From assembly GCF_003334765.1 (NCBI RefSeq), contig NZ_QOWT01000010.1: a stretch of DNA of 64,000 bases; one strand, given 5' to 3'. The translations under genes were made by a program, and so were the position numbers. This DNA comes from Escherichia coli. GTDB lineage: Bacteria > Pseudomonadota > Gammaproteobacteria > Enterobacterales > Enterobacteriaceae. The notes under the pieces are model-generated. The model saw nothing but the letters and a program-made list of their open reading frames with translations, had not been told where the DNA came from and made no database searches. Shown in pieces: positions 48,687 to 64,000 of this stretch. Position 1 is the first letter of the stretch. Each line of letters starts with the position of its first letter.

Positions 48687-49772
48687 ATGAAGACGTTTCC
48701 TCTGCAAAGCCTGACGATTATTGAGGCGCAGCAAAAGCAGTTTGCGCTGGTGGATAGCATTTGTCGCCATTTCCCCGGCAGCGAGTTTCTTACTGGCGGT
48801 GATTTAGGCTTAACGCCAGGACTGAATCAACCGCGCGTTACCCAGCGTGTGGAACAGGTGCTGGCTGATGCATTTCACGCACAGGCTGCGGCGCTGGTGC
48901 AGGGCGCGGGGACTGGCGCGATTCGCGCCGGGCTGGCGGCTTTGCTCAAACCGGGGCAGCGTCTTCTGGTGCATGACGCGCCTGTTTACCCGACGACACG
49001 GGTTATTATTGAGCAGATGGGGCTGACGCTTATTACTGTTGATTTCAATGACCTGTCGGCACTGAAGCAGGTCGTCGACGAGCAACAACCGGATGCGGCG
49101 CTGGTGCAGCATACGCGCCAGCAGCCGCAGGACAGCTACGTGCTGGCAGATGTGCTGGCAACGTTGCGCGCGGCAGGTGTTCCAGCGTTAACCGATGACA
49201 ACTATGCGGTGATGAAGGTGGCTCGAATCGGCTGTGAATGCGGCGCGAATGTCTCGACATTTTCCTGCTTCAAGCTATTTGGGCCAGAGGGTGTTGGTGC
49301 AGTGGTCGGCGATGCTGATGTTATCAACCGTATTCGCGCCACGCTTTACTCCGGCGGTAGCCAGATCCAGGGCGCACAGGCGCTGGAAGTATTGCGTGGT
49401 CTGGTGTTTGCGCCAGTGATGCACGCGGTGCAGGCAGGGGTATCTGAACGGTTGCTGGCTTTGCTTAACGGTGGTGCGGTGCCGGAAGTGAAAAGCGCGG
49501 TGATTGCTAATGCGCAGTCGAAGGTGTTGATTGTCGAGTTTCATCAGCCGATTGCCGCCAGAGTGCTGGAAGAGGCGCAAAAGCGCGGTGCCTTGCCTTA
49601 CCCGGTGGGTGCAGAGTCGAAATATGAAATCCCGCCGCTCTTTTATCGCCTTTCCGGAACGTTTCGCCAGGCGAATCCACAATCAGAACATTGTGCGATT
49701 CGCATTAACCCGAATCGCAGCGGTGAAGAGACGGTGCTGCGGATTTTGCGTGAGAGTATTGCCAGTATTTAA
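48687..49772 (+). CDS. yhfS: YhfS, putative PLP-dependent enzyme (aminotransferase-like fold)
   Basis: 361-aa ORF MKTFPLQSLTIIEAQQKQFALVDSICRHFPGSEFLTGG. Confidence 0.83.
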   Translation: MKTFPLQSLTIIEAQQKQFALVDSICRHFPGSEFLTGGDLGLTPGLNQPRVTQRVEQVLADAFHAQAAALVQGAGTGAIRAGLAALLKPGQRLLVHDAPVYPTTRVIIEQMGLTLITVDFNDLSALKQVVDEQQPDAALVQHTRQQPQDSYVLADVLATLRAAGVPALTDDNYAVMKVARIGCECGANVSTFSCFKLFGPEGVGAVVGDADVINRIRATLYSGGSQIQGAQALEVLRGLVFAPVMHAVQAGVSERLLALLNGGAVPEVKSAVIANAQSKVLIVEFHQPIAARVLEEAQKRGALPYPVGAESKYEIPPLFYRLSGTFRQANPQSEHCAIRINPNRSGEETVLRILRESIASI

Positions 49773-49807
49773 TGCTGGATAGCACCGTCAAGCTAAATTC
49801 CGTACTG

Positions 49808-49860
49808 AACGGTCCCCTCGCCCCTTTGGGGAGAGGGTTAGGGTGAGGGGAACGTACGGG
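49808..49860. repeat. GC-rich imperfect palindrome (REP-related intergenic repeat, family uncertain)
   Basis: ccgtactgaacggtcccctcgcccctttggggagagggttagggtgaggggaacgtacgg; outer arms ccgtac/gtacgg and inner C-rich/G-rich arms. Confidence 0.55.
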
Positions 49861-49885
49861 ATGTAAAATTCAACGCGCCAGCATC

Positions 49886-49922
49886 GCCGGATGCGATGCT
49901 GGCGCATCTTATCCGGCCTACG
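49886..49922. repeat. REP palindromic unit
   Basis: gccggatgcgatgctggcgcatcttatccggcctacg immediately downstream of frlR. Confidence 0.75.
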
Positions 49923-49923
49923 G

Positions 49924-50655
49924 TTAATGTCTTTTATTATCAATAGTTAAGGTGATGCGATTGGCGCGGCAGAAGAGTTCGGAGACGTGCACCGGTTTGT
50001 CATTCTGATCAAAGGCGATTTTGCTGATGCGAAACAACGGTTCGCCCAGTTCGCATTTCAGCCATTTTGCCTGCGGGCGGGTGGCGGCAAAGATATCGAT
50101 GGTCTTTTTGTCGCTGACCACTCGCGTGTCAAAACGCTCCTGAAATAACTGATAGGTGGAGCTTCCTTCGACGTAAATCTCATCAAAGTCAGGATAACGC
50201 GACAGCGGGATCCATGAACTATCAATAAACAGCGGCTCTTGATCGAGATACATCACCCGGCAGAGATGGAACACTTCGCTGTTTCCGGGGATGTTCAGCT
50301 TTTCGCAAAACGGCGCGGCGCTGACCCGTTCCTGTTCGATCACTTTCTCTTTCGTCGCCTTGCCTTGTGAGACGCCAAAATCGGTAAAACCACTGACAGT
50401 AAGCAGGGCGTTTTCAACTTTCTGGCTTTGTACAAAGGTGCCTTTTCCCTGCCAGCGGATCAGTACGCCGTCTGCCACTAAGTCGCTGATGGCTTTGCGA
50501 ATGGTAATGCGGCTGACGTTATATTGTGTACAAAGCTCGTTTTCGGTAGGGATCTGTTGCCCGGCCTGGTAAACCCCCTGCGCGATATCATCCAGCAGTC
50601 GCTGGCGGACGGTAGCGTAGAGGAGTTGATGAGAGTAGCGGTCCGTAGCTGACAT
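49924..50655 (-). CDS. frlR: FrlR, GntR-family repressor of the fructoselysine operon
   Basis: 243 aa from internal ATG at 50655 (MSATDRYSHQLLYATVRQRLLDDIAQGVYQ); HTH NVSRITIRKAISDL; ORF track has a 22-codon extension. Confidence 0.87.
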   Translation of the reverse strand: MSATDRYSHQLLYATVRQRLLDDIAQGVYQAGQQIPTENELCTQYNVSRITIRKAISDLVADGVLIRWQGKGTFVQSQKVENALLTVSGFTDFGVSQGKATKEKVIEQERVSAAPFCEKLNIPGNSEVFHLCRVMYLDQEPLFIDSSWIPLSRYPDFDEIYVEGSSTYQLFQERFDTRVVSDKKTIDIFAATRPQAKWLKCELGEPLFRISKIAFDQNDKPVHVSELFCRANRITLTIDNKRH

Positions 50656-50754
50656 AATCGACCCTGAAATAAAGAATGAATTACTCGGATTATAGGGTCG
50701 TTTTCCGGCAAGTAACAGCACGTTGGCGTGAAGATGCTCACGCCAACGTTATAC

Positions 50755-51540
50755 CTACCAGGCACCGTGGTACTGAATGGTTTTCGCCGCGCACGCCGTT
50801 CCCTGCGCTATCGCCTGCGGTAATGTCATCCCCGCAGACCAGCCGCAAAGGAATCCGGCAATGAACGAATCTCCGGCACCCATGGTGTCGATAACCGTCA
50901 CCGGTTCAGGAGCCTGACGCCAGAACTGCGCGCCATCCCAGGCAATGCTGCCGTTTTCACCCAGCGTGACAATCACTGTTCCTGCGCCACGGGCAACAAT
51001 CGCTTTCATCTTCAGACGCAGCGTTTCGTCTTCTTGCGGTGCGGAGGCAAAGGCAAAATCGAGATGCGGCACCAGTGTCTGCCAGAGCGGGCTGTCCCAC
51101 TTGTCGGAGAAGTCGAAAGCGGTAAGTTTGCCCGCAGCGTGCAGCTGTGGGAATGCGTCTTCCGCATGTCCCCAGATTGCCGCGTGCACAATGTCATACT
51201 GCGCCAGCCAGGCGTAATCCTCTTCACTCAGGGCAAAGTCGGCCATCACGCCTTCGGTGTAGTCGCCAAAAACGCGATCATTGTCGTGCAGTTCCACCTG
51301 AGTTTGTGCGGTAACGCCGTGTTTCGTATGGACATGGCTGATATCGACGCCCATGCGGGCGAGATCCTGCTTCAGCTTTGTGCCGTAGTCATCGTCACCC
51401 ACCCAGGTAATGCATCCCGGCTGTATGCCGTAGCGAGTGCAGTACACCGCCACATTGACCGCATTACCGCCAGAAAACGCTTTATTCAGTTGCGGGTAGA
51501 TATCGACGCAGTTATCGCCGATTGTCGCCAGGGTTTTCAT
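50755..51540 (-). CDS. frlD: Fructoselysine 6-kinase
   Basis: 261-aa [32 protein letters not shown]; PfkB-family motifs. Confidence 0.9.
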
Positions 51541-52367
51541 CTCTCATCCTCCGGCAGCAGCGCGCGAAAGCGTTCCAGCGCCTGGCGGGCATAGAGTCTG
51601 GGCTCGTTCATATACATCGTCACCAGCTCCACCGTACAGTAACCTTCATAGCCCCGCTCAATAATATCGCGCATCAGTTCCCGCAGCGGCATTTTGCCTT
51701 CTCCAGGAATGTAATGCGTGTCGCTGGCCCCGTCGCTGTCGACAATATGCAGATGACGTAATTTATCGCCCAGTTTGTCGAAATAACTCATCACCGGTTC
51801 CGCCTGGACATACGGCGCGCAAATGTCGACCATGCTGAACAGGCGCGGCGAAGGCACCAGCGCCAGCGCATGAAGCACATCATTAGCATTACACACGACG
51901 TTCGATTCATACGGCGTTAACGGTTCGAGGATTAGATCCATGCCGATGTTTTCCGCGTACTCACACAGTTCGCTTAGGTTCTCTGCCAGCCGTCCCCAGA
52001 TAACATTAGGTGGCGTGAGATAGCCCGCGTGGGCCGCGGAAATCAGCGTATAACCCGCGTTCATCTCTTTTGCCATATCCATCGCCAGCTTGATCATGTC
52101 GAGGCTTTCGCGACGCATATGTTCATCGCCCAGCATCATGTTATACGGATAGCCGTTGGTTTCTGGCGTATAGCCGATAATCGGCATCTGATACGTCTGC
52201 GCCAGCGCCTTGATTTGTTTGATGCCGCCCGCTTTTAAGTCCGGCGCGAACGCGTGCGGGCGACCGCCCCAAATTTCGATGCCGTCGTAACCCAGCTCGC
52301 TTGCATCACGAAATGCGTGTTCAATAGGCAGCCGCTGGTGGCCGCAGGTAAACATACCTGTTTTCAT
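51537..52367 (-). CDS. frlC: Fructoselysine 3-epimerase
   Basis: 276 aa from internal ATG at 52367 ([35 protein letters not shown]); ORF track has a 29-codon extension; 4-nt overlap with frlD. Confidence 0.85.
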
Positions 52368-52416
52368 CGGGTAACTCCTTGCGTAAATCCGGCCCGTTGC
52401 CGGGCCGGGAGAGGGA

Positions 52417-53439
52417 TTAATATTCCACCAGACCACCGTAATAGCGGCGTTCATCCGGGTTGTGATCTTTGTAAATAGACAGGTAGTAGCAGAGCCACTC
52501 CATTGGCACGAACATCAGGAACGGTGCCAGCCACGGGTGCAGCCCTTGCGAAATTTCGGCGTAATCGATGACGATCACGTTGTCAGTACGCTGTTTAACA
52601 AAGTTAATGGCGCGTTCGGTGGTGTGGCGACTTTCATCATTGCCGAGCAGGAACAGGAACGGAACGCCCGGTTCGACAATCTCCAGCGGGCCATGGCGGA
52701 ACTCTCCGCTCTCAATCACGCAGCCGTGCGTCCAGGTAAATTCCATCAGCGTTACAATGCCTTCTTTGTAACCCAGCGGACGCAGCGGACCCGCAGCAAC
52801 GGTATAAATCATCGGCCACTGGCTGGCCAGTTCACCAAGCTGGCGGCCTTTTTCTTCCCAGGTGCGTACCAGATGACCGAGCGCATTCGGCAACTGCTTG
52901 AGATCGTTTTTGATCTTGCCGATTTCCGCGTTCGGCGCGAGGCGGGTGATCATCTCCAGCACCACGCTGTAGCAGAGCAGCAGGTGAATTTCCCAGATAC
53001 AGTCGGCCTGATAATCAATGCTAAATTCCGCCGCCGAGGTAATCGGGCTATCCGCGCGTTTGGTGAACGCCGCAGTGAGTGCGCCGCAGGCCCGGCCCAG
53101 CTCCAGCGCTTTGATTACCTCTTCGGTTTTACCGTAGTCAGAAACGCCAATTACTGCGCAACGATCGTCGAGGCGATACGGGGTGTTATCGCAGAACTCC
53201 CAGCCGGAAATGGCGTAGACCTGAAGATCGGAAAAGCGATCCGCCAGATGTTTCGCCGTTTGCGCCGCGTTGAGTGGCGATCCGCAGGCAACGAAATAAA
53301 TACGATCAATGTCGCGCTTCACCATCTCTTCCACGATGGCGTGCACCAGCGGAACGTCATGGCTGAGAACTTTTTCCACTTCCTGAACCATATTTTCGGT
53401 GACCAGAAAGTCCACGGTGCTTTTATCAATATCCAACAT
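52417..53439 (-). CDS. frlB: Fructoselysine-6-phosphate deglycase (SIS domain)
   Basis: 340 aa from internal ATG at 53439 ([21 protein letters not shown]); ORF track has 7 extra codons. Confidence 0.87.
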
Positions 53440-53459
53440 TTTATTTTCTCCAGATAACA

Positions 53460-54848
<1,389 letters not shown>

Positions 54849-55014
54849 TTAAAAGGTAACATGACAATGCATGATGAATATAACAACATATGATGTTATG
54901 TAATGTGGAGGAAGATCACAAAATTTCGCACAGGATCGCGCTGTGGCTAATGGATGTAGTTATCAAATTGAATTTAAAGTGAAAATATTTTTACGGGCGG
55001 GGGCAAGAAGGACA

Positions 55015-55050
55015 TAGAAACAAATACGCCCTCGGAAAATCCAGAGGGCG
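55015..55050 (-). terminator. Probable rho-independent terminator downstream of yhfL
   Basis: On minus: cgccctc-tggattttcc-gagggcg followed by a T-rich stretch. Confidence 0.5.
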
Positions 55051-55091
55051 TCGGGCAATTAAACCGGTGTTAGCCGATTTCTGTCAGAGAC

Positions 55092-55259
55092 TTACTGTGC
55101 AGTAGGACCGCAACCGCCAATGATTTTAGAAATAGAAATTGCCGGGTGCAGCAGGTAGTCGTAAGAGCAGTTCTTATCACGGTTTTCAATATGACCAGTA
55201 CATGCAGTTAACGTAGCCAGTACTGCACCTACCAGTGCAACTTTAATAAATTTGTTCAT
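55092..55259 (-). CDS. yhfL: YhfL, small lipoprotein (55 aa)
   Basis: Hand translation of the reverse complement gives MNKFIKVALVGAVLATLTACTGHIENRDKNCSYDYLLHPAISISKIIGGCGPTAQ with a lipobox (LTAC). Below the 60-aa cutoff, so absent from the ORF track. Confidence 0.75.
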   Translation of the reverse strand: MNKFIKVALVGAVLATLTACTGHIENRDKNCSYDYLLHPAISISKIIGGCGPTAQ

Positions 55260-55505
55260 TTACATTCCCTATGTATTATATATTAATTAATATTCATTGA
55301 TTATATGAATATAAGCAGACTGCTCGTTAAGAACGATACAGGAATATTTAATTGGCGTCAGTGAGCGAATGACTTAATTTTGTAAGTCGCTGTAACGGTG
55401 AATATAACCCATTAGCAGATAATATTTATTAAGGGGCTATGTTTTATTTGCTGAATATATAAAAAGAGTCATTAAGAAGGCCAGAATTCTCTGGCCCGGG
55501 TTAAA

Positions 55506-56879
55506 TTAATGGTTGGAGAACCAGTTCAGTTTATCGCGCAGGCCAACAACCCGACCAATAATAATTAGCGATGGACTGTTCATTTGCTGCGCCAGTTCTC
55601 CCAGCTGTGTGAGCGTACCGTCAATCACGCGCTGCGTGACTGCCGTACCGTTTTCGACAATTGCCACCGGCATTTCGCCTGGCATTCCGTGTTCAATCAG
55701 CTTTTGCTGAATAGTCGCGGCCTGATTCAACCCCATATAGAACACCAGCGTCTGTTTTTCTGCCGCCAGGTTTTCCCAGTCCAGCTCGCCACCGGTTTTT
55801 AAGTGTCCGGTAATTAAGCGTACGCTCTGGGCATAATCGCGATGCGTGAGTGGAATACCCGAATAGGCAGAGCAACCAGAAGCTGCGGTAATACCCGGAA
55901 CCACCGAGAACGGAATACCCGCGTTGCACAGTGTTTCCAGCTCTTCGCCACCACGGCCAAAAATAAACGGATCGCCACCTTTCAGCCGCACCACGCGTTT
56001 GCCTTTTTGCGCTTCCCGCAGCAGGATCTGGTTAATCTCTTCCTGGGGTACGCAGTGGTATCCCGCGCGTTTGCCGACGAAAACACGGTCCGCATCGCGG
56101 CGTACCAGATTCATAATATCGTCAGAAACCAGACGGTCGTAGACCACCACATCTGCCTGCTGAATTTGTTGCAGTCCTTTCAGTGTCAGCAGCCCGGCAT
56201 CGCCCGGACCTGCACCAACCAGCACCACTTCACCGCGATGGTCGAGCGGTTCGTTGATTAACTGTTCGGTCGTTTCAGTAATGGCTTTCTGATCGTTGTT
56301 TGCCAGCGACTGCGCCAGGCGGTCGTTAACGAACAATTTCTCCCAGAAACGGCGACGCTCACCCATCGTGGCGAACTGTTGTTTCACTCGCCCGCGTAAT
56401 TGCCCGGCGTATTTCGCTACCTGGCCCAGATGTAACGGCAGCAGTGATTCAAGTTTTTCGCGCAACAGGCGTGCCAGAACCGGAGAGGTGCCGCCAGAGG
56501 AGACCGCTACCATGAGCGGTGAGCGGTCAATAATCGACGGCATAATAAAGCTGGCGGCTTTCGGCGCATCGACCACGTTACAGAAGATGCGACGAGCTTC
56601 AGCGGCTTCGCTGACGCGCTGGTTAAGCGCGTCATCATCCGTCGCTGCAATCGCCAGCCAGCAGGTGTCGAGAAGGCTTTCATCAAATGGCCCTTCGACG
56701 AGGGTTAACATGCCTGCATCTGCCCATGCGGTGAACTGTGGAATAAACGCTAATGCATTCACCGTTAAGCGAGCGCCTGCGTCTAACAGCAACCTTGCTT
56801 TGCGTTCCGCGACATCACCACCGCCGACAATCAGACAGTCGCGATCGCGTAATTGGCAAAATATAGGCAAATGATCCAC
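55506..56879 (-). CDS. cysG: Siroheme synthase (multifunctional)
   Basis: 457-aa [45 protein letters not shown]. Confidence 0.96.
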
Positions 56880-56897
56880 GTAAAAACCCCTTAGTAA

Positions 56898-57704
56898 TTA
56901 ACCGGCAGCCGTTTCAGTTTGATTAAATTTGTCCGCAACCGGACGATTCGCTTTCGGCGTAGCATACCAATAACCCAATCCCATGAATACGGCACCTGAT
57001 AAAGTATTACCCAGCGTCACCCACAGCAGGTTATGACCAATACCCGCCAGCGTGTAGGCTTCGCTGTGGTTGCCGAACCAGGAGAGCGCGAACAGCGTCA
57101 TGTTAGCGATAGAGTGCTCGTAGCCGGACGCGATAAATGCCAGCAGACACCACCAGATAGCGATAAATTTCGCCGCCCCTTCAGTGCGCAGCGCCATCCA
57201 GATTGCCAGGCAAACCAGCCAGTTACACAATGCACCTTTGAAGAAGAGTACCATTGCCGGTGCAGTGGTTTTAGCCAGCGCGACGGAGTGAACGATGCTG
57301 GTATCTACCGGCAGCAGGCTACCGCCGCCCCAGCTATAGAGCATGGCAACGAAGACGGAACCGACCAGGTTACCCAGCCAGGTTTGCGGCAGGATTGCCC
57401 ACATTTGCCCGTGGCTGATGCTGCCCGCTTTTACCCCAAAGGTGAGGAACATGGTGTGTCCGGTGAACAGTTCAGAACCGGCGATAATCACCAGCGTTAA
57501 GGCGATACCAAAGGTCGCGCCCATCACCAAAGGGCGTACGGATGGATCGAGCAAATTACCGAGCGTGAAAATCAGGATGATCCCAAGACCCACATACGCG
57601 CCCGCCATGGCGGAGCTGACCCAAAAGCCGAGCGGGTTATTTGCCGACAGGCGTGCAATGCGCGCAGCGTTAGCCGCACACTTATTAATAGTGTCTGTAA
57701 ACAT
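56898..57704 (-). CDS. nirC: Nitrite transporter NirC (FNT family)
   Basis: 268-aa ORF MFTDTINKCAANAARIARLSANNPLGFWVSSAMAGAYVGLG. Confidence 0.95.
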   Translation of the reverse strand: MFTDTINKCAANAARIARLSANNPLGFWVSSAMAGAYVGLGIILIFTLGNLLDPSVRPLVMGATFGIALTLVIIAGSELFTGHTMFLTFGVKAGSISHGQMWAILPQTWLGNLVGSVFVAMLYSWGGGSLLPVDTSIVHSVALAKTTAPAMVLFFKGALCNWLVCLAIWMALRTEGAAKFIAIWWCLLAFIASGYEHSIANMTLFALSWFGNHSEAYTLAGIGHNLLWVTLGNTLSGAVFMGLGYWYATPKANRPVADKFNQTETAAG

Positions 57705-57751
57705 TTGATTATCCTTTAAAAAATAAAAACAAAAAATAAAACAAAAAGTTT

Positions 57752-57820
57752 AAAAAATGTCCTGCAATATACCGAAGATTATTACAGGACCATGCAAAAA
57801 GGGGAGGCATTGCGCCTCCC
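57752..57820 (-). terminator. Two tandem hairpins with T-runs in the nirD-nirC spacer (possible intra-operon attenuator)
   Basis: On minus: GGGAGGC-gcaat-GCCTCCC + CTTTTT (57796-57820), then GTCCTG-20 nt-CAGGAC + ATTTTTT (57752-57790). Confidence 0.45.
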
Positions 57821-57829
57821 GTTAAAACA

Positions 57830-58156
57830 TTAACCGCGCAGCTGCACCACGCCGTCTTTCACTCGCGCTTCGTAATGTTTGACGGAAAACTGTTCGTCTT
57901 CCATGCACAAGCCGTCGCTTAAGCGAAAACGCTGTTTTTTCAGCGGGCTGGCGACCCACAGCTCGCCCTGGTGTTCCGCAATCAGTCCGCGTGACAGCAC
58001 GCTGGACTCGAAGAACGGGTCGATGTTGCTGATCGCAAACACCTGATCGCTGTGATACGGGCGGAAAATCGCGACCTGCTCGTCACCTAACAGCGCGCAG
58101 ACGCCGGTTTCAGGCAGGATGTCATCGATTTTGCAGATGTCTTTCCACTGGCTCAT
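57830..58156 (-). CDS. nirD: Nitrite reductase small subunit
   Basis: 108-aa ORF MSQWKDICKIDDILPETGVCALLGDEQVAIFRPY; 4-nt overlap with nirB. Confidence 0.95.
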   Translation of the reverse strand: MSQWKDICKIDDILPETGVCALLGDEQVAIFRPYHSDQVFAISNIDPFFESSVLSRGLIAEHQGELWVASPLKKQRFRLSDGLCMEDEQFSVKHYEARVKDGVVQLRG

Positions 58157-60696
58157 GCGTTGTCCTCCACCAGAGTTACTGGGATACGTTCATACGGCGT
58201 TGCCGGACGGTGCTGTTCGCGCTCTGGCACCATCTGCACGTTCGGGTCACGCTTGTCGCTGTTGATGAAGTGTTTGAAGCGAGTCTGCGCAGACGGCGTA
58301 TTGACCGTTTCAGTCCACTCACACAGTACCGCTTCACGCAGGCGCGCCATCTCTTCTTCCAGATGTGCGTTCAGCCCCAGTTTGTCGTCAATGATCACTG
58401 CTTTCAGGTAATCGATGCCGCCTTCGAGGTTTTCTAACCACGGTGCGGTACGCGTCAGTTTGTCGGCAGTACGGATGTAGAACATCATGAAGCGGTCGAG
58501 ATATTTGATCAGCGTTTCGCGATCGATATCCGCCGCCAGCAGATCCGCATGACGCGGTTTCATGCCGCCGTTACCGCAAACATACAGGTTCCAGCCTTTT
58601 TCAGTGGCGATAATACCCACGTCTTTACCCTGAGCTTCTGAACATTCACGGGTACAGCCGGAGACACCGAACTTCATTTTGTGCGGCGTACGGATGCCTT
58701 TGTAGCGGTTTTCCAGTTCCACGCCGAGGCCGACGCTGTCGCCAACGCCGTAGCGGCACCAGGTGCTACCCACGCAGGTTTTCGCCATACGCAGTGCTTT
58801 CGCATAGGCATGACCGGTTTCGAAGCCGGCTTCAATCAGCTGACGCCAGATCTCCGGCAGATCGTCTTTCTGTGCGCCAAACATCGCCAGACGCTGGGAG
58901 CCAGTGATCTTGGTGTAGAGATTAAATTCACGCGCGATACGACCTACCGCCATCAGCCCTTCCGGGGTGATTTCACCGCCCGGAGAACGCGGGATCACCG
59001 AGTAGGTGCCGTCTTTCTGGATGTTAGCGAGGAAGTTGTCGTTAGAATCCTGCAGCGGAGTATGTTCCGGCTTCAGAATGTATTCGTTCCAGCAGGAGGC
59101 CAGCAGCGAACCGACGGTTGGTTTACAAACTTCACAACCGTAGCCTTTGCCGTGTTTCGCCAGCAGTTCTTCGAAGGTTTTAATGCCTTCAACGCGGATC
59201 AAATGGAACAGTTCCTGACGCGAATAAGCAAAGTGTTCGCACAGGTTGTTGTTAACTTCGATGCCCTGTTTCGCCAGTTCCGCGTTCAGTACCTGAGTGA
59301 CCAGCGGGATACAGCCACCGCAGCCAGTACCCGCTTTGGTTTCAGCTTTCAGCGCCGCAACTGTGTGGCAGCCTTTGTTGATGGCAGCAATCAGATCACC
59401 TTTGGTGACGTCGAAGCAGGAGCAGATTTGCGCGCTGTCCGGCAGTTTATCAACACCGATAGACGGCTTGCCGCTACCCGAGTGTGCTGGCAGGATCAGG
59501 GAATCCGGGTTTTCCGGCAGTTCGATAGCGTTCAGCACCAGTTGCAGCAGGTTACCGTAGTCGCTGGTATCGCCCACCAGTACCGCACCGAGCAGGGTTT
59601 TGTTGTCTTCGCTGACAATCAGGCGTTTGTAGATCTCTTTACTTTCGTCGAGGTAAACGTAGCTACGTGCGCCAGGCGTGCGACCGTGCGCATCACCAAT
59701 ACCGCCTACGTCTACGCCCAGCAGTTTCAGCTTGGCGCTAAGGTCAGCACCTTCAAAGGCGTTTTCGCTACCGAGAATATGGTCAACGGCGACCTGCGCC
59801 ATTTTGTAGCCAGGTGCTACCAGACCAAATACACGGTTGTTCCAGCTTGCGCATTCACCGATGGCGTAGATATCCGGATCGGAAGTCTGGCAGGAATCAT
59901 TAATGACAATACCCCCACGCGGAGCAACGTCCAGACCACACTGGGTTGCCAGCTTATCGCGCGGACGGATACCGGTAGAGAAGACGATAAAGTCGACTTC
60001 CAGTTCGCTGCCGTCGGCAAAACGCATGGTTTTACGCGCTTCAACACCTTCCTGCACAATCTCAAGGGTGTTTTTGCTGGTGTGAACGCGCACGCCCATA
60101 CTTTCGATTTTGCGACGCAGCTGCTCGCCGCCCATCTGATCAAGCTGTTCTGCCATCAGCATAGGGGCAAATTCGATAACGTGGGTTTCAATACCTAAGT
60201 TTTTCAGCGCGCCTGCGGCTTCCAGACCTAACAGGCCGCCACCAACAACGGCACCGCGTTTGCTGCGACGGGCGCAGGATTCAATGGCGTTGAGGTCTTC
60301 AATAGTGCGATAGACAAAGCAGTCCTGAGTATCAGAACCTTTGATTGGCGGGATCCACGGGTAGGAACCGGTTGCCATGATCAGCTTGTCATAAAAAACG
60401 GTACGTCCGGCGCTGGAGTGAATCACCTTCTCCTGACGGTTGATGGTGATAGCGCGTTCGCCGACCAGAACTTTGATGCCGTGTTTCTCGTAGAAGCCTT
60501 CGCGCACCAGCGACAGCTCTTCGGCGGTGTGGTGAGAGAAGTAAGACGAGAGGTGTACGCGGTCATAAGCGATGCGCGGTTCTTCACAGAAAACGGTAAT
60601 ATCAAAGTTGGCCGCATCAGATTTATCAAGAAGATCTTCGATAAAGCGATGGCCGACCATACCGTTACCGATAATTGCGAGTCTGACTTTGCTCAT
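58153..60696 (-). CDS. nirB: NADH-dependent nitrite reductase large subunit
   Basis: 847-aa ORF MSKVRLAIIGNGMVGHRFIEDLLD (FAD/NAD Rossmann motif GNGMVG). Confidence 0.97.
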   Translation of the reverse strand: MSKVRLAIIGNGMVGHRFIEDLLDKSDAANFDITVFCEEPRIAYDRVHLSSYFSHHTAEELSLVREGFYEKHGIKVLVGERAITINRQEKVIHSSAGRTVFYDKLIMATGSYPWIPPIKGSDTQDCFVYRTIEDLNAIESCARRSKRGAVVGGGLLGLEAAGALKNLGIETHVIEFAPMLMAEQLDQMGGEQLRRKIESMGVRVHTSKNTLEIVQEGVEARKTMRFADGSELEVDFIVFSTGIRPRDKLATQCGLDVAPRGGIVINDSCQTSDPDIYAIGECASWNNRVFGLVAPGYKMAQVAVDHILGSENAFEGADLSAKLKLLGVDVGGIGDAHGRTPGARSYVYLDESKEIYKRLIVSEDNKTLLGAVLVGDTSDYGNLLQLVLNAIELPENPDSLILPAHSGSGKPSIGVDKLPDSAQICSCFDVTKGDLIAAINKGCHTVAALKAETKAGTGCGGCIPLVTQVLNAELAKQGIEVNNNLCEHFAYSRQELFHLIRVEGIKTFEELLAKHGKGYGCEVCKPTVGSLLASCWNEYILKPEHTPLQDSNDNFLANIQKDGTYSVIPRSPGGEITPEGLMAVGRIAREFNLYTKITGSQRLAMFGAQKDDLPEIWRQLIEAGFETGHAYAKALRMAKTCVGSTWCRYGVGDSVGLGVELENRYKGIRTPHKMKFGVSGCTRECSEAQGKDVGIIATEKGWNLYVCGNGGMKPRHADLLAADIDRETLIKYLDRFMMFYIRTADKLTRTAPWLENLEGGIDYLKAVIIDDKLGLNAHLEEEMARLREAVLCEWTETVNTPSAQTRFKHFINSDKRDPNVQMVPEREQHRPATPYERIPVTLVEDNA

Positions 60697-60754
60697 TTTT
60701 GCCTCGATTTCTTTTCTATTACCGCCTACCTTAACGATTCAGCAACCCCGCTTA

Positions 60755-60768
60755 TTGATGTAAATCAA
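60755..60768. promoter_or_regulatory. FNR site of the nirB promoter
   Basis: ttgatgtaaatcaa = TTGAT-N4-ATCAA, perfect half-sites, about 60-70 bp upstream of the nirB ATG; the surrounding sequence matches the nirB promoter as I recall it. Confidence 0.8.
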
Positions 60769-60781
60769 ATTCACCTTTATA

Positions 60782-60797
60782 TACTCCTTAATGGGTA
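60782..60797. promoter_or_regulatory. NarL/NarP 7-2-7 site of the nirB promoter
   Basis: tactccttaatgggta (minus-strand TACCCATTAAGGAGTA), inverted heptamers, about 28 bp upstream of the FNR site. Confidence 0.7.
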
Positions 60798-60915
60798 TAT
60801 TGCTGATTTGTATAAATTTTCTTAAGTCACGGAATTGTCTGATATTTCATGTTTGTGCAAAAAATAGACAAAATGAGCGGGTTTATAGAAATAGATGCAC
60901 GTAGCGGGGGAAGAG

Positions 60916-60949
60916 AGGAAAAGGCCGGACGACGATAGTGCCGTCCGGC
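60916..60949 (-). terminator. Probable terminator downstream of tsgA
   Basis: GCCGGACG-10 nt loop-CGTCCGGC followed on minus by a T/C-rich stretch. Confidence 0.5.
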
Positions 60950-60957
60950 ATGAGCAA

Positions 60958-62139
60958 TTAATGAGAGGTCAGGGTGTTATGCTGACGGTGACGGCTGACG
61001 AAACCTAACAGGAAGCACATCACAAAGACGACAGCGTACAGACCGTTTGCTGTAAGCAGTGCCGCCTGCGGACCGCTATGTTCAACGATCGGGCCGGTAA
61101 CCACAAAGGTCAACATAGTACCGATGGTTCCGCAGGTCAGGACAAAGTTAACCAGTTTTGGCGACGGTACTTTGGTCTGCTGTGAACCCAGGGTGATGAT
61201 GGTGGTATAGATCGCGCTGGAGAAGAAGCCCAGAGCGAGAATTGACCACGCCATATGTGCTGGTGTTCCGGTGTTAAAGACGTACATCAGAATCGCAGCC
61301 AGACCAGCCAGTACGGTCAGAATGCGTTGCAAATCAAAGAAGCGAAGAATAAAGCTGAACGCCCACATGCCGACCATGTATGACATCCAGAAGTTACTCA
61401 CCAGCGTGCCCGCGTCGTTCAGGCTCATGCCCAGGCCTTTGGCATACTCAGGCACCCAGGAGATAAAACCTAACTGACCGAGGATGTAGCACAACGCCGC
61501 AACAGAGAGAAACAGTACGCCGATCCCCCACTTTTCTTTCTCTACCGGAGCATCCGTTTTTGGCGCATGTTTGCCCAGCGCCGGGAACTCACAGCCGAAG
61601 GTCAGAATAAAAATAGCGACATACACCAGCCCGATGCAGGCATAAACCCAGTACCACTCAATGCTGCGCGCCAGTAGAAACGCGGCGATCATTGGGAAAA
61701 TCATCCCAGCCATACTGAAGAAGGAGTCGGTAAATAACAGGCGGGAACCGCGCTGACGCCCTTCATACATTTGTGTTACCAGGAATGTACCAATCGACAT
61801 GGTGATGCCGCTGACCACCCCGAGAATGAACATCGCCGCCGAGAACAGCGCCAGGCTGTGGCTGAACATCAAACCGGCAACCGCCAGCACCATCAGGAGA
61901 AAGCCAAAACGTAACTGCGTTTTCAACGGGACGATTTCCATCAGCCAGGCGTTGAGGAAGATAGAGATTAAAATGCCGGCGTTGAGGAAGGTGAAGGTAT
62001 TACTCATACTGGAAACAGGCAGATTGAAATAATCGGCGATATTTCCCATCACCATCCCGGTGACAATAACCAACGCACCAGTCAGTGCGTAGGAGAGAAA
62101 GCTAATCCATGTGAGCTTGATGCGATTGCTGTTAGTCAT
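60958..62139 (-). CDS. tsgA: TsgA, MFS-family transporter
   Basis: 393-aa [41 protein letters not shown]. Confidence 0.9.
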
Positions 62140-62262
62140 GATTGGCCTGCGTTCAAAAATAAAATGGCATAGCGGGATATGCCGCGAGCGGGCGATTTTA
62201 GGTGATTTTGTGATCTGTTTAAATGTTTTATTGCAATCGGTTGCTAAATTGCATTTTAAGAG

Positions 62263-62276
62263 GTGATTTTGATCAC
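62263..62276. promoter_or_regulatory. Candidate CRP site in the tsgA-ppiA divergent region
   Basis: GTGAttttgaTCAC (GTGA-N6-TCAC) about 135 bp upstream of ppiA; a second weaker gtgattttgtgatc at ~62202-62215. Confidence 0.5.
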
Positions 62277-62400
62277 GGAATAAAAAGTGATCGTCAGGTT
62301 ACATATATTTCAGATACGTAAAATTAGGTAAAGGGATGGCCTTGTTCTTGAAGGCTATTTAGAATCTCTTCACTTGCTTTTTTTCTGCTCTGTTTGTTAA

Positions 62401-62982
<582 letters not shown>

Positions 62983-62991
62983 TGATTTCTC

Positions 62992-63020
62992 GCGCGGGCA
63001 ATCTTGCCCGCGCTTCTGCT
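62992..63020 (+). terminator. Terminator hairpin downstream of ppiA
   Basis: gcgcgggca-atct-tgcccgcgc (9-bp GC stem) followed by ttctgct. Confidence 0.6.
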
Positions 63021-63086
63021 CTCCCGGCGTAACCCGGATTTGCCGCTTATACTTGTGGCAAATGGACACGTTCAGGGAGGCATCAA

Positions 63087-63254
63087 GTGAAGAAACTCAC
63101 CGATAAGCAAAAGTCCCGTCTCTGGGAGCTTCAGCGTAATCGTAATTTTCAGGCCAGTCGCCGTCTTGAAGGCGTCGAGATGCCTTTAGTCACTCTTACT
63201 GCCGCAGAGGCTTTAGCGCGCCTTGAAGAGCTGAGGAGTCACTATGAGCGATAA
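63087..63254 (+). CDS. yhfG: YhfG / FicA-type antitoxin-like small protein (55 aa)
   Basis: Hand translation from GTG at 63087 (gggagg SD 8 nt upstream): [55 protein letters not shown]; contains SxxxEG (S24...E28-G29); overlaps the fic start by 11 nt. Below the ORF-track size cutoff. Confidence 0.72.
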
Positions 63255-63846
63255 ATTCGGCGAAGGGCGCGATCCGTATCTTTATCCAGGCCTTGATATC
63301 ATGCGTAACCGGCTGAACATCCGCCAGCAGCAGCGGCTGGAACAGGCCGCTTACGAAATGACGGCGCTGCGTGCTGCGACCATTGAGCTTGGTCCGCTGG
63401 TGCGCGGTTTACCGCATTTGCGAACTATCCATCGCCAGCTGTATCAGGATATTTTCGACTGGGCAGGGCAACTGCGTGAAGTTGATATTTATCAGGGTGA
63501 TACGCCGTTCTGCCACTTTGCTTATATCGAAAAAGAGGGCAATGCCCTGATGCAGGATCTGGAGGAAGAAGGTTATCTGGTTGGCCTGGAGAAAGCGAAG
63601 TTCGTCGAGCGGCTGGCGCATTACTATTGTGAAATCAACGTGCTGCATCCCTTCCGGGTGGGAAGTGGTCTGGCACAGCGGATCTTCTTCGAGCAACTGG
63701 CGATTCATGCCGGATATCAACTGAGCTGGCAGGGTATCGAAAAAGAGGCCTGGAATCAGGCAAATCAGAGTGGGGCAATGGGGGATCTCACCGCACTGCA
63801 GATGATATTTAGCAAAGTGGTAAGCGAAGCCGGGGAATCTGAGTAA
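63244..63846 (+). CDS. fic: Fic (FIC-domain protein, class I FicT-like)
   Basis: 200-aa [28 protein letters not shown]; FIC-motif position reads [12 protein letters not shown]. Confidence 0.92.
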
Positions 63847-63877
63847 AATAGCGCGGTTCTTTTGTACCGGAGCCGCC

Positions 63878-64000
63878 ATGATCCTGCTTATAGATAACTA
63901 CGATTCTTTTACCTGGAACCTCTACCAGTACTTTTGTGAACTGGGGGCGGATGTGCTGGTTAAGCGCAACGATGCGTTGACGCTGGCGGATATCGACGCC
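63878..64000 (+). CDS. pabA: Aminodeoxychorismate synthase component II (5' end only; continues beyond window)
   Basis: Hand translation from ATG at 63878: [41 protein letters not shown], the glutamine amidotransferase N-terminus. Confidence 0.85.

Follow-up and report, generated by a model that had tools for sequence, protein, structure and literature searches.

The spacer between nirD and nirC in Escherichia coli is very probably the ortholog of the Salmonella nirD-nirC regulatory region and, like it, uncouples nirBD from nirC(-cysG). It occupied the same position and carried a homologous hairpin in which sequence comparison pointed to compensatory substitutions, as would be expected of an orthologous module. 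The spacer is real and functional, and it is largely known biology: its logic, together with the internal terminator, the RNase E cut and NarS, was published for Salmonella. Literature searches recovered no experimental dissection of the E. coli element. For the latter, the present analysis established the sequence anatomy, the conservation and covariation of the first hairpin, the complementarity to NarS and the Escherichia-specific origin of the second hairpin.

Organization of the spacer

Among the genes of nirBDC-cysG, nirD and nirC were the only ones separated by a long untranslated gap, since nirB and nirD overlap by ATGA and nirC and cysG are 18 nt apart. All four genes were annotated in K-12 and in each of 5426 E. 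coli genomes (5426/5426). The structured spacer of 125 nt on the minus strand, described in an earlier note on this DNA, was recovered with exact coordinates between the nirD stop codon TAA (57832-57830) and the nirC ATG, and was identical to K-12 MG1655 3496878-3497002. Its components are listed below, with positions counted in the window, i.e. the whole 64-kb stretch of DNA that was analysed.

Features of the nirD-nirC spacer and its borders, in window coordinates
Feature	Position	Strand	Remarks and basis
nirD-nirC intercistronic spacer	57705..57829	-	125 nt; gene calls, K-12 comparison
Hairpin 1, GGGAGGC-GCAAU-GCCUCCC	57802..57820	-	-14.7 kcal/mol; scan, folds, covariation
U run CUUUUU behind hairpin 1	57796..57801	-	next bases GCAUG
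Hairpin 2, GUCCUGUAAUAAUC-UUC-GGU-A-UAUUGCAGGAC	57759..57790	-	-14.9 kcal/mol; folds, pair counts
U-rich tract	57718..57758	-	32 U in 41 nt; from the AUUUUUU tail of hairpin 2 to the Shine-Dalgarno
NarS pairing site AAAGGAUAAUCAAAU	57703..57717	-	perfect 15-nt complement of E. coli NarS (b4813)
nirC start codon	57702..57704	-	
Rho-termination region, best-scoring coordinate	57676	-	K-12 3497031, 28 nt inside nirC (PMC7815308)

Folding of the minus-strand transcript, proposed in the earlier note as a check, gave -40.6 kcal/mol for a 146-nt region, compared with -25.3 +/- 3.8 for dinucleotide shuffles (z = -4.1), and none of 200 shuffles was as good. A terminator scan of the same region found five matches where 2.6 +/- 1.6 were expected, which by itself is not significant. 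Rfam covariance models run on the whole 64-kb window returned no family at gathering threshold; the best match below it, sroE, scored 22 bits where 51 were required and was judged a chance hit. Likewise, REP, ERIC and BoxC motifs were searched in the E. coli spacer and none matched.

Hairpin 1 was the top terminator-like match of the scan and begins 9 nt past the nirD stop. As anticipated in the earlier note, it is a GC-rich 7-bp hairpin followed by CUUUUU: its stem, of the intrinsic-terminator type, comprises seven Watson-Crick pairs (eight with G-U), six of them G-C. The tail (CUUUUUGCAU) displays one C and five U before G/C resumes, compared with six to eight U in a typical intrinsic terminator; so short a U tail is weak and more in keeping with partial than with complete termination.

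Hairpin 2 was folded by RNAfold into a long, A-U-rich stem of about 14 bp that contains a single bulge, is closed by the 3-nt loop UUC and is directly followed by AUUUUUU. The second hairpin and its AUUUUUU had been noticed before, and only the proposed geometry (a 6-bp stem with a 20-nt loop) gave way to this longer helix.

The U-rich tract is the most T-rich part of the 64-kb window, in line with the long U-rich run that had been noted ahead of the nirC ribosome-binding site. When both strands were scanned for windows with at least 28 T per 40 nt, this locus was the only one found, with a maximal count of 32 against 23 on the other strand. The tract is a degenerate UUUUUR repeat whose length, depending on the strain, lies between 41 nt (K-12) and about 70 nt (strain A4). 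It is a candidate RNase E cleavage zone as well as a candidate Hfq/S1 binding platform.

The NarS pairing site spans the nirC Shine-Dalgarno, AAGGA at 57716-57712, and extends over the A and U of the start codon. An exact-complement search matched ATTTGATTATCCTTT to AAAGGATAATCAAAT at 57717-57703 over all 15 nt, once in the window, and NarS itself is annotated in K-12. RNAduplex predictions for full-length NarS against the whole spacer gave an end-to-end duplex that was no better than shuffles and is uninformative. The GGATAATCAA core was kept in the genera named as NarS carriers in PMC7038943. In Salmonella, the NarS-nirC interaction was analysed by reporter assays, seed mutants and footprinting, the footprint covering -12 to +1 of nirC, and E. 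coli RIL-seq data back the pairing according to Wang et al. (PMC7038943). NarS, the main trans-acting partner, and its pairing at the Shine-Dalgarno were absent from the earlier note.

Distribution of the hairpins in Enterobacteriaceae

The scan alone being insufficient, hairpin 1 stands above chance because it is conserved and covarying. In an alignment of 41 enterobacterial spacers, 90.8% of the cells were paired, compared with 49-68% in slid controls. Double changes occurred in four of nine pairs (36 cells in total), a score that none of 500 shuffles reached. Pair 14-32 was G-C in 24 of the 41 species and C-G in 11; pair 17-29 was A-U in 24 and G-C in 15. As far as aligned sequences can tell, this is evidence that hairpin 1 has been under structural selection across Enterobacteriaceae. 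The hairpin started 8-10 nt past the nirD stop in Escherichia, Salmonella diarizonae, Citrobacter, Klebsiella and others, and a T run followed it in nearly every species that retained it. It was near-identical in the spacer of Salmonella enterica subsp. diarizonae (GGGAGGCGCAACGCCUCCCCUUUUUU), the Salmonella sequence used for comparison here in place of S. Typhimurium.

Hairpin 2 was found in Escherichia only and was missing from the spacers of other genera. Short-spacer genera displayed an alignment gap of about 48 columns directly past the hairpin 1 U run, which E. coli fills with hairpin 2 and the beginning of the U tract. In each of the 5426 E. coli genomes examined (5426/5426) it occurred at one place per genome (median 1). 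As an insertion, hairpin 2 is single-copy and confined to Escherichia, and it occupies a slot that in other genera is filled by REP, ERIC or BoxC-like sequences, the equivalent spacers of Citrobacter, Cedecea, Buttiauxella and others being examples. This slot behind hairpin 1 has taken palindromic insertions repeatedly across genera. A present-day mobile repeat family was ruled out by the single copy per genome; a loose resemblance to REP (CCTG.TAA...CAGG) is the sole basis for a decayed-REP origin.

Among 12 Escherichia sequences the hairpin 2 helix was 90% paired, with changes from G-C to A-U and from U-G to C-G. Two divergent alleles were distinguished. Both fold into a stable stem, at -14.9 to -18.1 kcal/mol in one and -10.9 to -16.6 kcal/mol in the other, and they differ by a G-C to A-U change at the stem base; such covariation is weak evidence, the two alleles reflecting only one or two evolutionary events. 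Hairpin 2 probably acts as a second structural barrier, or caps the 5' end of the nirC-cysG RNA after processing, and it may also be a neutral insertion; a terminator role for it is putative.

The U tract was displaced in some genera. Its U-rich window ended 10-20 nt ahead of the ATG in most genera free of ERIC insertions, compared with 115-215 nt in ERIC-bearing spacers.

Transcript evidence and competing readings

In Salmonella, the hairpin and U track were described as terminating transcripts inside the operon and stabilising their 3' ends (Wang, Chao, Matera, Gao, Vogel 2020 NAR, PMC7038943). Deletion of the element (delta-sU) lowered nirBD, raised nirC-cysG and reduced NarS repression of nirC from about 30-fold to about 5-fold; northern blots displayed nirBD, nirC-cysG and cysG bands, the nirBD-sized one depending on the hairpin/U-track element (PMC7038943). 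According to 5' RACE, nirC 5' ends lay in the U-rich region and were processed only, none being primary, and the nirC-cysG species was lost in an rne-ts strain, indicating RNase E-dependent processing (PMC7038943). The U stretch was proposed as an Hfq site required for NarS repression (PMC7038943), which agrees with the RNA-protein binding platform suggested in the earlier note, while the Hfq CLIP peak looked for there was absent from the spacer in the aerobic data reported by Wang et al. (PMC7038943). The additional cysG promoter that the same note had placed inside nirC likewise agrees with the separate promoter published for cysG (PMC7038943).

The resemblance between both species covers the operon, the position right past the nirD stop, the hairpin GGGAGGCGCAAYGCCUCCC (about -14.8 kcal/mol; published Salmonella value -14.9 kcal/mol, PMC7038943), the U-rich region 3' of it, the NarS-complementary Shine-Dalgarno region and the separate cysG promoter. 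Yet, they differ in the U run past the hairpin (five U in E. coli, at least six in Salmonella) and in the additional Escherichia-specific hairpin that interrupts the U track. The geometry also differs and counts against simple transfer: the U track adjoins the NarS site in E. coli only, and lies some 200 nt upstream of it in Salmonella, a distance consistent with an ERIC-type insertion such as those seen here in Citrobacter.

In E. coli MG1655, DirectRNA-seq (Adams et al. 2021) recorded 586 reads upstream and 24 downstream of K-12 3497031 in untreated cells (PMC7815308), a 24-fold fall at the nirD-nirC junction (PMC7815308, supplementary file 2). Uniform coverage over this junction, which the earlier note had named as contradicting its reading, was thus not observed, and a partial terminator or attenuator setting the nirBD:nirC-cysG ratio is in agreement both with this profile and with the Salmonella deletion (PMC7038943, PMC7815308). 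Upon bicyclomycin treatment the counts were 920 and 149, leaving a fall of about 6-fold, and the coordinate obtained a Rho score of 3.95 (p = 6e-12, PMC7815308), meaning that the downstream/upstream coverage ratio rose about 4-fold; its position is of low resolution, the score being computed on 800-nt windows. Junction polarity in E. coli is partly Rho-dependent, and the remaining fall could reflect differential RNA stability instead of termination. The earlier note had not foreseen a Rho contribution. It had also expected transcript 3' ends at the hairpins; coverage was indeed non-uniform at the junction, but no curated Term-seq 3' end of Adams et al. fell within K-12 3496800-3497099 (aerobic LB or M63, basal expression). 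Basal aerobic expression may be the reason for this missing end. The data set of Yan 2018 held no nir entries.

Given these data, the hairpins could be stability elements only, serving nirBD as barriers to 3' exonucleases in the way of REP stabilisers and nirC-cysG as a 5' cap, with polarity resulting from Rho on the long untranslated RNA and from RNase E decay. This possibility is a minority one but deserves weight; it overlaps the terminator model and departs from it solely in whether RNA polymerase stops at hairpin 1. Stabilisation was allowed as an alternative by Wang et al. (PMC7038943) and would accommodate the missing Term-seq end, the significant Rho component, the short U5 tail and the occupation of the same slot elsewhere by REP, ERIC or BoxC-like palindromes, which are of the stabiliser type and free of directly adjoining U runs. 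It explains less well the 6-fold fall that survives bicyclomycin and the near-universal T run past the retained hairpin, needless for a pure stabiliser. Moreover, given the preference of Rho for rut sites, a U-rich, C-poor tract would be an untypical loading site. The U tract could also mainly control nirC translation in cis, as a putative S1 enhancer or, conversely, as a weak, fourU-like anti-Shine-Dalgarno whose U runs would pair with AAAGGAUAA. It does adjoin the Shine-Dalgarno, its composition is conserved across genera, and in the RNAfold prediction positions -14 to -5 are base-paired with -35 to -26, the mean unpaired probability at -14 to +3 (0.19) being the second lowest among 52 neighbouring K-12 genes. 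Opening of the site costs only 4.6 kcal/mol, however, an ordinary value below the median of these 52 genes, which leaves occlusion weak and led us to reject a strong one; and in ERIC-inserted spacers the tract is remote from the ATG although the Salmonella locus still works. A primarily translational role in cis is therefore unlikely.

Whether hairpin 2 has a function at all may be questioned, since it could be a palindromic insertion scar, possibly decayed and REP-like, in a permissive slot of an ancestral U track. Its restriction to Escherichia, the gap in short-spacer genera, the palindromes occupying the slot elsewhere and the degenerate T run of the E. albertii-type allele (CUUAUUUAG) all agree with such a scar. 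Its presence in every E. coli genome, the stable stem kept in each divergent allele in spite of the G-C to A-U change at its base, and its single copy outside any recognisable repeat family fit less easily, and we hold this interpretation to be tenable but not the probable one. The spacer also contains a 33-aa ORF (57810-57709) for a hydrophobic peptide, MPPLFAWSCNNLRYIAGHFLNFLFYFLFLFFKG, which we take to be probably the historical 'nirE' ORF. Its ATG lies 4 nt past GGAGG and it ends at a TAA inside the nirC Shine-Dalgarno region, but the Shine-Dalgarno (GGAGG) and ATG of the ORF itself are buried within hairpin 1. The frame was broken in O121 (+2 nt) and 2015C-3121 (+1 nt), reduced to 31 aa in E. 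whittamii and 6 aa in E. albertii, and deprived of its ATG where the loop is GCAAC (Salmonella, many Citrobacter, Klebsiella). With neither frame nor start codon conserved within Escherichia and among genera, a protein-coding 'nirE'-like ORF was rejected, and a coding role is extremely improbable. The nirE product was reportedly barely translated in the work of Harborne et al. in 1992; literature searches for nirE in E. coli gave nothing relevant. Action at the DNA level, the T tract being an internal nirC promoter or UP element, a nucleoid-protein site or curved DNA, is very unlikely as well. The tract is extremely AT-rich and the nirB promoter is a known target of nucleoid proteins, but a scan of the transcribed strand of the spacer disclosed no sigma-70-like promoter and the T runs, 5-7 nt apart, are out of helical phase. 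The Salmonella nirC 5' ends, processed only (PMC7038943), point in the same direction.

Proposed mechanism and related systems

By analogy, the Salmonella mechanism would presumably carry over to E. coli. Transcripts from the nirB promoter would reach hairpin 1 and its short U run, where a fraction would stop, and the hairpin would also shield the nirBD 3' end from exonucleases. RNase E would cut read-through RNA in the ribosome-free U-rich region, yielding nirBD and nirC-cysG species. Directly upstream of the Shine-Dalgarno, the single-stranded U tract would offer a binding platform; Hfq is the likeliest protein to use it, and S1 a possible one. NarS, produced from the narK 3' UTR during nitrate respiration, would pair over 15 nt with the Shine-Dalgarno/AUG region, block nirC translation and trigger decay. 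Untranslated nirC RNA would be exposed to Rho, adding to polarity, and cysG would escape through its own promoter within nirC.

Intercistronic partial terminators setting subunit ratios are known from the rplL-rpoB attenuator and the T1 terminator of rpsU-dnaG-rpoD. As in the nir spacer, a hairpin and U run lie between cistrons and a fraction of the transcripts passes; unlike them, the nir spacer is linked with RNase E cleavage and with an sRNA target in the cistron that follows. U-rich enhancers bound by S1 (atpE) and fourU RNA thermometers (Salmonella agsA) share with nirC the U runs right upstream of the Shine-Dalgarno, which are predicted to pair with AAGGA through U:A and U:G, but the nirC tract is far longer than a fourU and its opening energy is ordinary. 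REP/BIME, ERIC and BoxC palindromes act as mRNA stabilisers, e.g. in malE-malF. The nir spacer of E. coli differs from such repeats by the lack of a motif match and by the single copy of hairpin 2. Wang et al. also drew a comparison with iscR-iscSUA and RyhB (PMC7038943); in systems of the malE-malF or iscR-iscSUA type, as in nir, the upstream cistron ends in a stable stem-loop that results in differential stability. A further parallel cited is glmUS, where RNase E processing is followed by sRNA control (PMC7038943). There too, a polycistronic mRNA is cleaved around the upstream gene's stop codon, and the sRNA then acts on the fragment 3' of the cut; the outcome differs, since translation of glmS is activated by GlmZ and nirC is repressed by NarS.

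A bolder proposal, which we consider quite unlikely, is that Escherichia rebuilt the ancestral terminator/U-track as a distinct, tunable element, in which hairpin 2 would protect the 5' end of the nirC-cysG mRNA generated by RNase E or serve as a second pause/termination site, and in which the slippage-prone UUUUUR repeat has come to adjoin the Shine-Dalgarno. If true, repeat length would set strain-specific NirC output, responsiveness to NarS/Hfq or a weak fourU-like temperature dependence.

The value of these results lies in annotation and leaves the understanding of the system unchanged. They add for E. coli a precise map of the orthologous parts, structural selection on hairpin 1 as suggested by the alignments, and a slot accepting palindromes; minor new points are the Escherichia-specific hairpin 2, the length-polymorphic U repeat and the unconserved 'nirE'-like ORF. 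Nitrite is toxic; it is taken up through NirC and detoxified by NirBD, with CysG providing the sirohaem cofactor. By uncoupling transporter from reductase within one operon, enterobacteria avoid nitrite overload in nitrate respiration, for instance in the inflamed gut.

Organization of the nirD-nirC spacer

The nirD-nirC spacer occupied exactly positions 57705-57829 (125 nt, minus strand), was identical to K-12 3496878-3497002 and constituted the sole long untranslated gap of the nirBDC-cysG operon, where nirB runs into nirD through an ATGA overlap and 18 nt separate nirC from cysG. An 801-nt query around it matched 5426/5426 complete E. coli genomes, with nirB, nirD and nirC annotated under the match, and positions 49708-64000 matched the reverse-oriented K-12 MG1655 sequence at 99.97% identity. 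The length and structured parts claimed in the earlier note were recovered at exact coordinates.

Features of the nirBDC-cysG operon and its nirD-nirC spacer
Feature	Coordinates	Strand	Description
nirB	60696-58153	minus	
nirD	58156-57830	minus	
hairpin 1	57820-57802	minus	GGGAGGC-GCAAU-GCCUCCC; 9 nt past nirD stop, followed by CUUUUU
hairpin 2	57790-57759	minus	stem of ~14 bp with one bulge, UUC loop, -14.9 kcal/mol; followed by AUUUUUU
U tract	57758-57718	minus	32 U in 41 nt
nirC	57704-56898	minus	
cysG	56879-55506	minus	

Hairpin 1, the GC-rich stem with a CUUUUU run noticed just 3' of the nirD stop, was indeed the top terminator-like site of a local scan (fold of -14.7 kcal/mol). Hairpin 2 and its AUUUUUU run were also present, while the 6-bp stem and 20-nt loop first attributed to it gave way to the longer stem listed in the table. 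The minus-strand transcript was structured as proposed, the whole spacer region folding far better than shuffled sequences (z = -4.1). The initial observation thus held, apart from the geometry of hairpin 2, which needed correcting.

The unusually long U-rich run leading to the nirC ribosome-binding site stood alone: nowhere else in the 64-kb window, on either strand, did 40 nt contain 28 or more T. Tandem Repeats Finder resolved it into a degenerate repeat unit of 6 or 12 nt. Its length was polymorphic within E. coli: strain A4 (NZ_CP028770.1; positions 198-256 of locus L083, corresponding to 57718-57747) displayed 9.8 copies of TTTTTA in a 155-nt spacer, and the O121 and 2015C-3121 spacers carried one or two extra T relative to K-12. 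The tract is a hexamer repeat prone to slippage.

Conservation and genus-specific inserts

Eighty loci encoding NirC relatives were fetched from one-genome-per-species bacterial assemblies and yielded 78 nirD-nirC spacers (K-12 included), ranging from 30 nt (Serratia) to 432 nt. Since the 30-nt spacers of three Serratia loci (L072, L075 and L079, positions 1471-1500) had neither hairpin nor U tract, the terminator/U-track module appears, from these sequences, to be confined to Enterobacteriaceae. The Chimaeribacter spacer displayed a different GC hairpin followed by a T run.

Hairpin 1 and its T run directly followed the nirD stop in Escherichia, Citrobacter, Salmonella, Klebsiella and Leclercia, as well as in Silvania, Kosakonia, Phytobacter, Siccibacter and others. 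In an alignment of 41 species its helix was 90.8% paired, against only 49-68% for slid controls. Pair 14-32 was G-C in 24 sequences and C-G in 11, pair 17-29 was A-U in 24 and G-C in 15, and none of 500 shuffles reached the covariation score. Together, these results are good evidence that the structure is under selection, as RNA or single-stranded DNA. The U-rich window ended 10-20 nt upstream of the nirC ATG in most genera, including those in which hairpin 1 was lost, and lay 115-215 nt upstream where an ERIC element was located between tract and Shine-Dalgarno sequence; E. coli had the most extreme tract among the compared spacers.

The slot between hairpin 1 and the U tract was an insertion hot spot whose contents differed by genus and reflected independent acquisitions: REP copies in Citrobacter, ERIC copies in several Citrobacter, Phytobacter, Pseudescherichia and UBA3516, and arrays of BoxC-like palindromes in Cedecea, Buttiauxella and Superficieibacter. 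The longest insert-bearing spacer (loci L008-L069, upstream of position 1501) was that of L060, at 432 nt. Among the compared spacers, hairpin 2 occupied this slot in Escherichia alone, and it was found as a single copy in 5426/5426 E. coli genomes. When Salmonella diarizonae, Klebsiella, Huaxiibacter and Enterobacter, whose spacers are short, served as reference, the Escherichia sequence displayed one insertion of ~48 columns immediately 3' of the hairpin 1 U run.

Hairpin 2 existed as two alleles, K-12 type and E. albertii type, with different loops and a lower stem paired in both; two pairs of that stem differed between them, one by a G-C to A-U and the other by a U-G to C-G change. As this represents just one or two evolutionary events, it lends weak support to structural selection. 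The E. albertii-type allele had a degenerate T run 3' of the stem, an argument against conservation of a terminator role. Hairpin 2 may provide another barrier or pause site or may cap the 5' end of processed nirC-cysG RNA, or it may be a simply tolerated insertion.

Transcript data and alternative functions

On the nir strand, Adams et al. 2021, eLife (PMC7815308, supplementary file 2) report a region of Rho termination (Rho score 3.95, p = 6e-12), with its best coordinate at K-12 3497031, i.e. 57676, 28 nt into nirC. Upstream and downstream reads were 586 and 24 without bicyclomycin, and 920 and 149 with it, from which we computed a 24-fold coverage drop over the nirD-nirC junction, ~6-fold remaining under Rho inhibition. 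Coverage was therefore far from the uniformity that, together with absent 3' ends, the earlier note had regarded as contrary to attenuation. No 3' end within K-12 3496800-3497099 appears in that study's curated Term-seq tables; these derive from aerobic cultures with the operon at basal level, a setting that may account for the absence. Rho would not usually be expected to load on a U-rich spacer so poor in C (1 C in 41 nt), yet the Rho-dependent component maps to this junction (57705-57758, 57676), where Rho may engage in the spacer or early in nirC. The same file gives a second Rho region antisense to nirD (K-12 3496855 minus, ~57852 on the plus strand; 262/12 reads without and 405/66 with bicyclomycin), implying that an antisense transcript traverses nirC (56898-57704) and the spacer before ending at the 3' end of nirD. 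Positions 57203-57231 held the only sigma-70-like site nearby on that strand.

Other functions were considered. A 33-aa hydrophobic ORF (57810-57709, minus), probably the historical 'nirE', starts in the hairpin 1 loop, 4 nt downstream of a GGAGG, and its TAA lies inside the nirC Shine-Dalgarno region. It was rejected as a gene because interruptions of the frame already occur among Escherichia and the ATG is missing from genera whose loop reads GCAAC; O121 has an allele in which the frame stays open into nirC, with no intervening stop. The U tract was predicted to pair with the Shine-Dalgarno region, whose mean unpaired probability (0.19) was second lowest of 52 neighbouring genes; opening that region costs just 4.6 kcal/mol, below the median of these genes, so that a strong anti-Shine-Dalgarno or thermometer role was not indicated. 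Scanning revealed no promoter-like site on the transcribed strand of the spacer, and no Rfam family matched spacer or window. A sub-threshold resemblance to sroE (57751-57830, minus; 22 bits against a gathering score of 51, E = 0.04) probably reflects just the shared layout of two hairpins and a U run.

Relationship to the Salmonella module

The spacer is best read as the E. coli ortholog of the nirD-nirC module dissected in Salmonella by Wang et al. 2020 (NAR 48:2126, PMC7038943). There, nirBDC-cysG gives a 5.4-kb transcript and shorter nirBD (~2.8 kb), nirC-cysG (~2.5 kb) and cysG (~1.4 kb) species, the latter from its own promoter, in agreement with the separate cysG promoter invoked earlier. 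All nirC 5' ends are processed and lie in a uridine-rich region beginning at the nirD stop codon; RNase E inactivation abolishes the nirC-cysG species and full-length RNA builds up. Deletion of stem-loop and U track lowered nirBD, raised nirC-cysG and reduced NarS repression of nirC from ~30-fold to ~5-fold. NarS, an sRNA released by cleavage of the narK 3' UTR, base-pairs at the Shine-Dalgarno region of nirC (footprint -12 to +1); the authors suggested Hfq binding by the U stretch and reported E. coli RIL-seq support for NarS-nirC pairing (PMC7038943).

Anatomy, conservation and NarS complementarity were observed here for E. coli itself. The GGATAATCAA core upstream of the nirC ATG was kept in Escherichia, Citrobacter, Salmonella and relatives, and a direct pairing test showed that AAAGGAUAAUCAAAU at 57717-57703 is matched over all 15 nt by a perfectly complementary stretch of E. 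coli NarS (annotated in K-12 as b4813). The functional steps are those shown in Salmonella and are extended to E. coli by analogy; the coverage drop and the Rho contribution to it are E. coli observations. Hairpin 1 and its short U run would act as a weak terminator and would stabilise the 3' end of nirBD; the U-rich RNA, free of ribosomes, would serve as RNase E entry and cleavage zone and as a platform for Hfq, possibly S1 too. NarS would occlude the nirC Shine-Dalgarno/AUG, Rho would act additionally on untranslated nirC RNA, and cysG would escape via its own promoter.

Considering the Salmonella deletion data (PMC7038943) and the E. coli coverage drop (PMC7815308), the proposal of a partial terminator or attenuator setting the nirBD:nirC-cysG ratio, or of an RNA-protein platform, was essentially correct. 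The feature is real, conserved and functional; the region was already described for its Salmonella ortholog (PMC7038943) and NarS was already annotated in K-12. The present additions are modest: the corrected structure and Escherichia-specific origin of hairpin 2, the family-wide covariation of hairpin 1, the hot spot behind it, the repeat polymorphism of the U tract and partial Rho dependence in E. coli.
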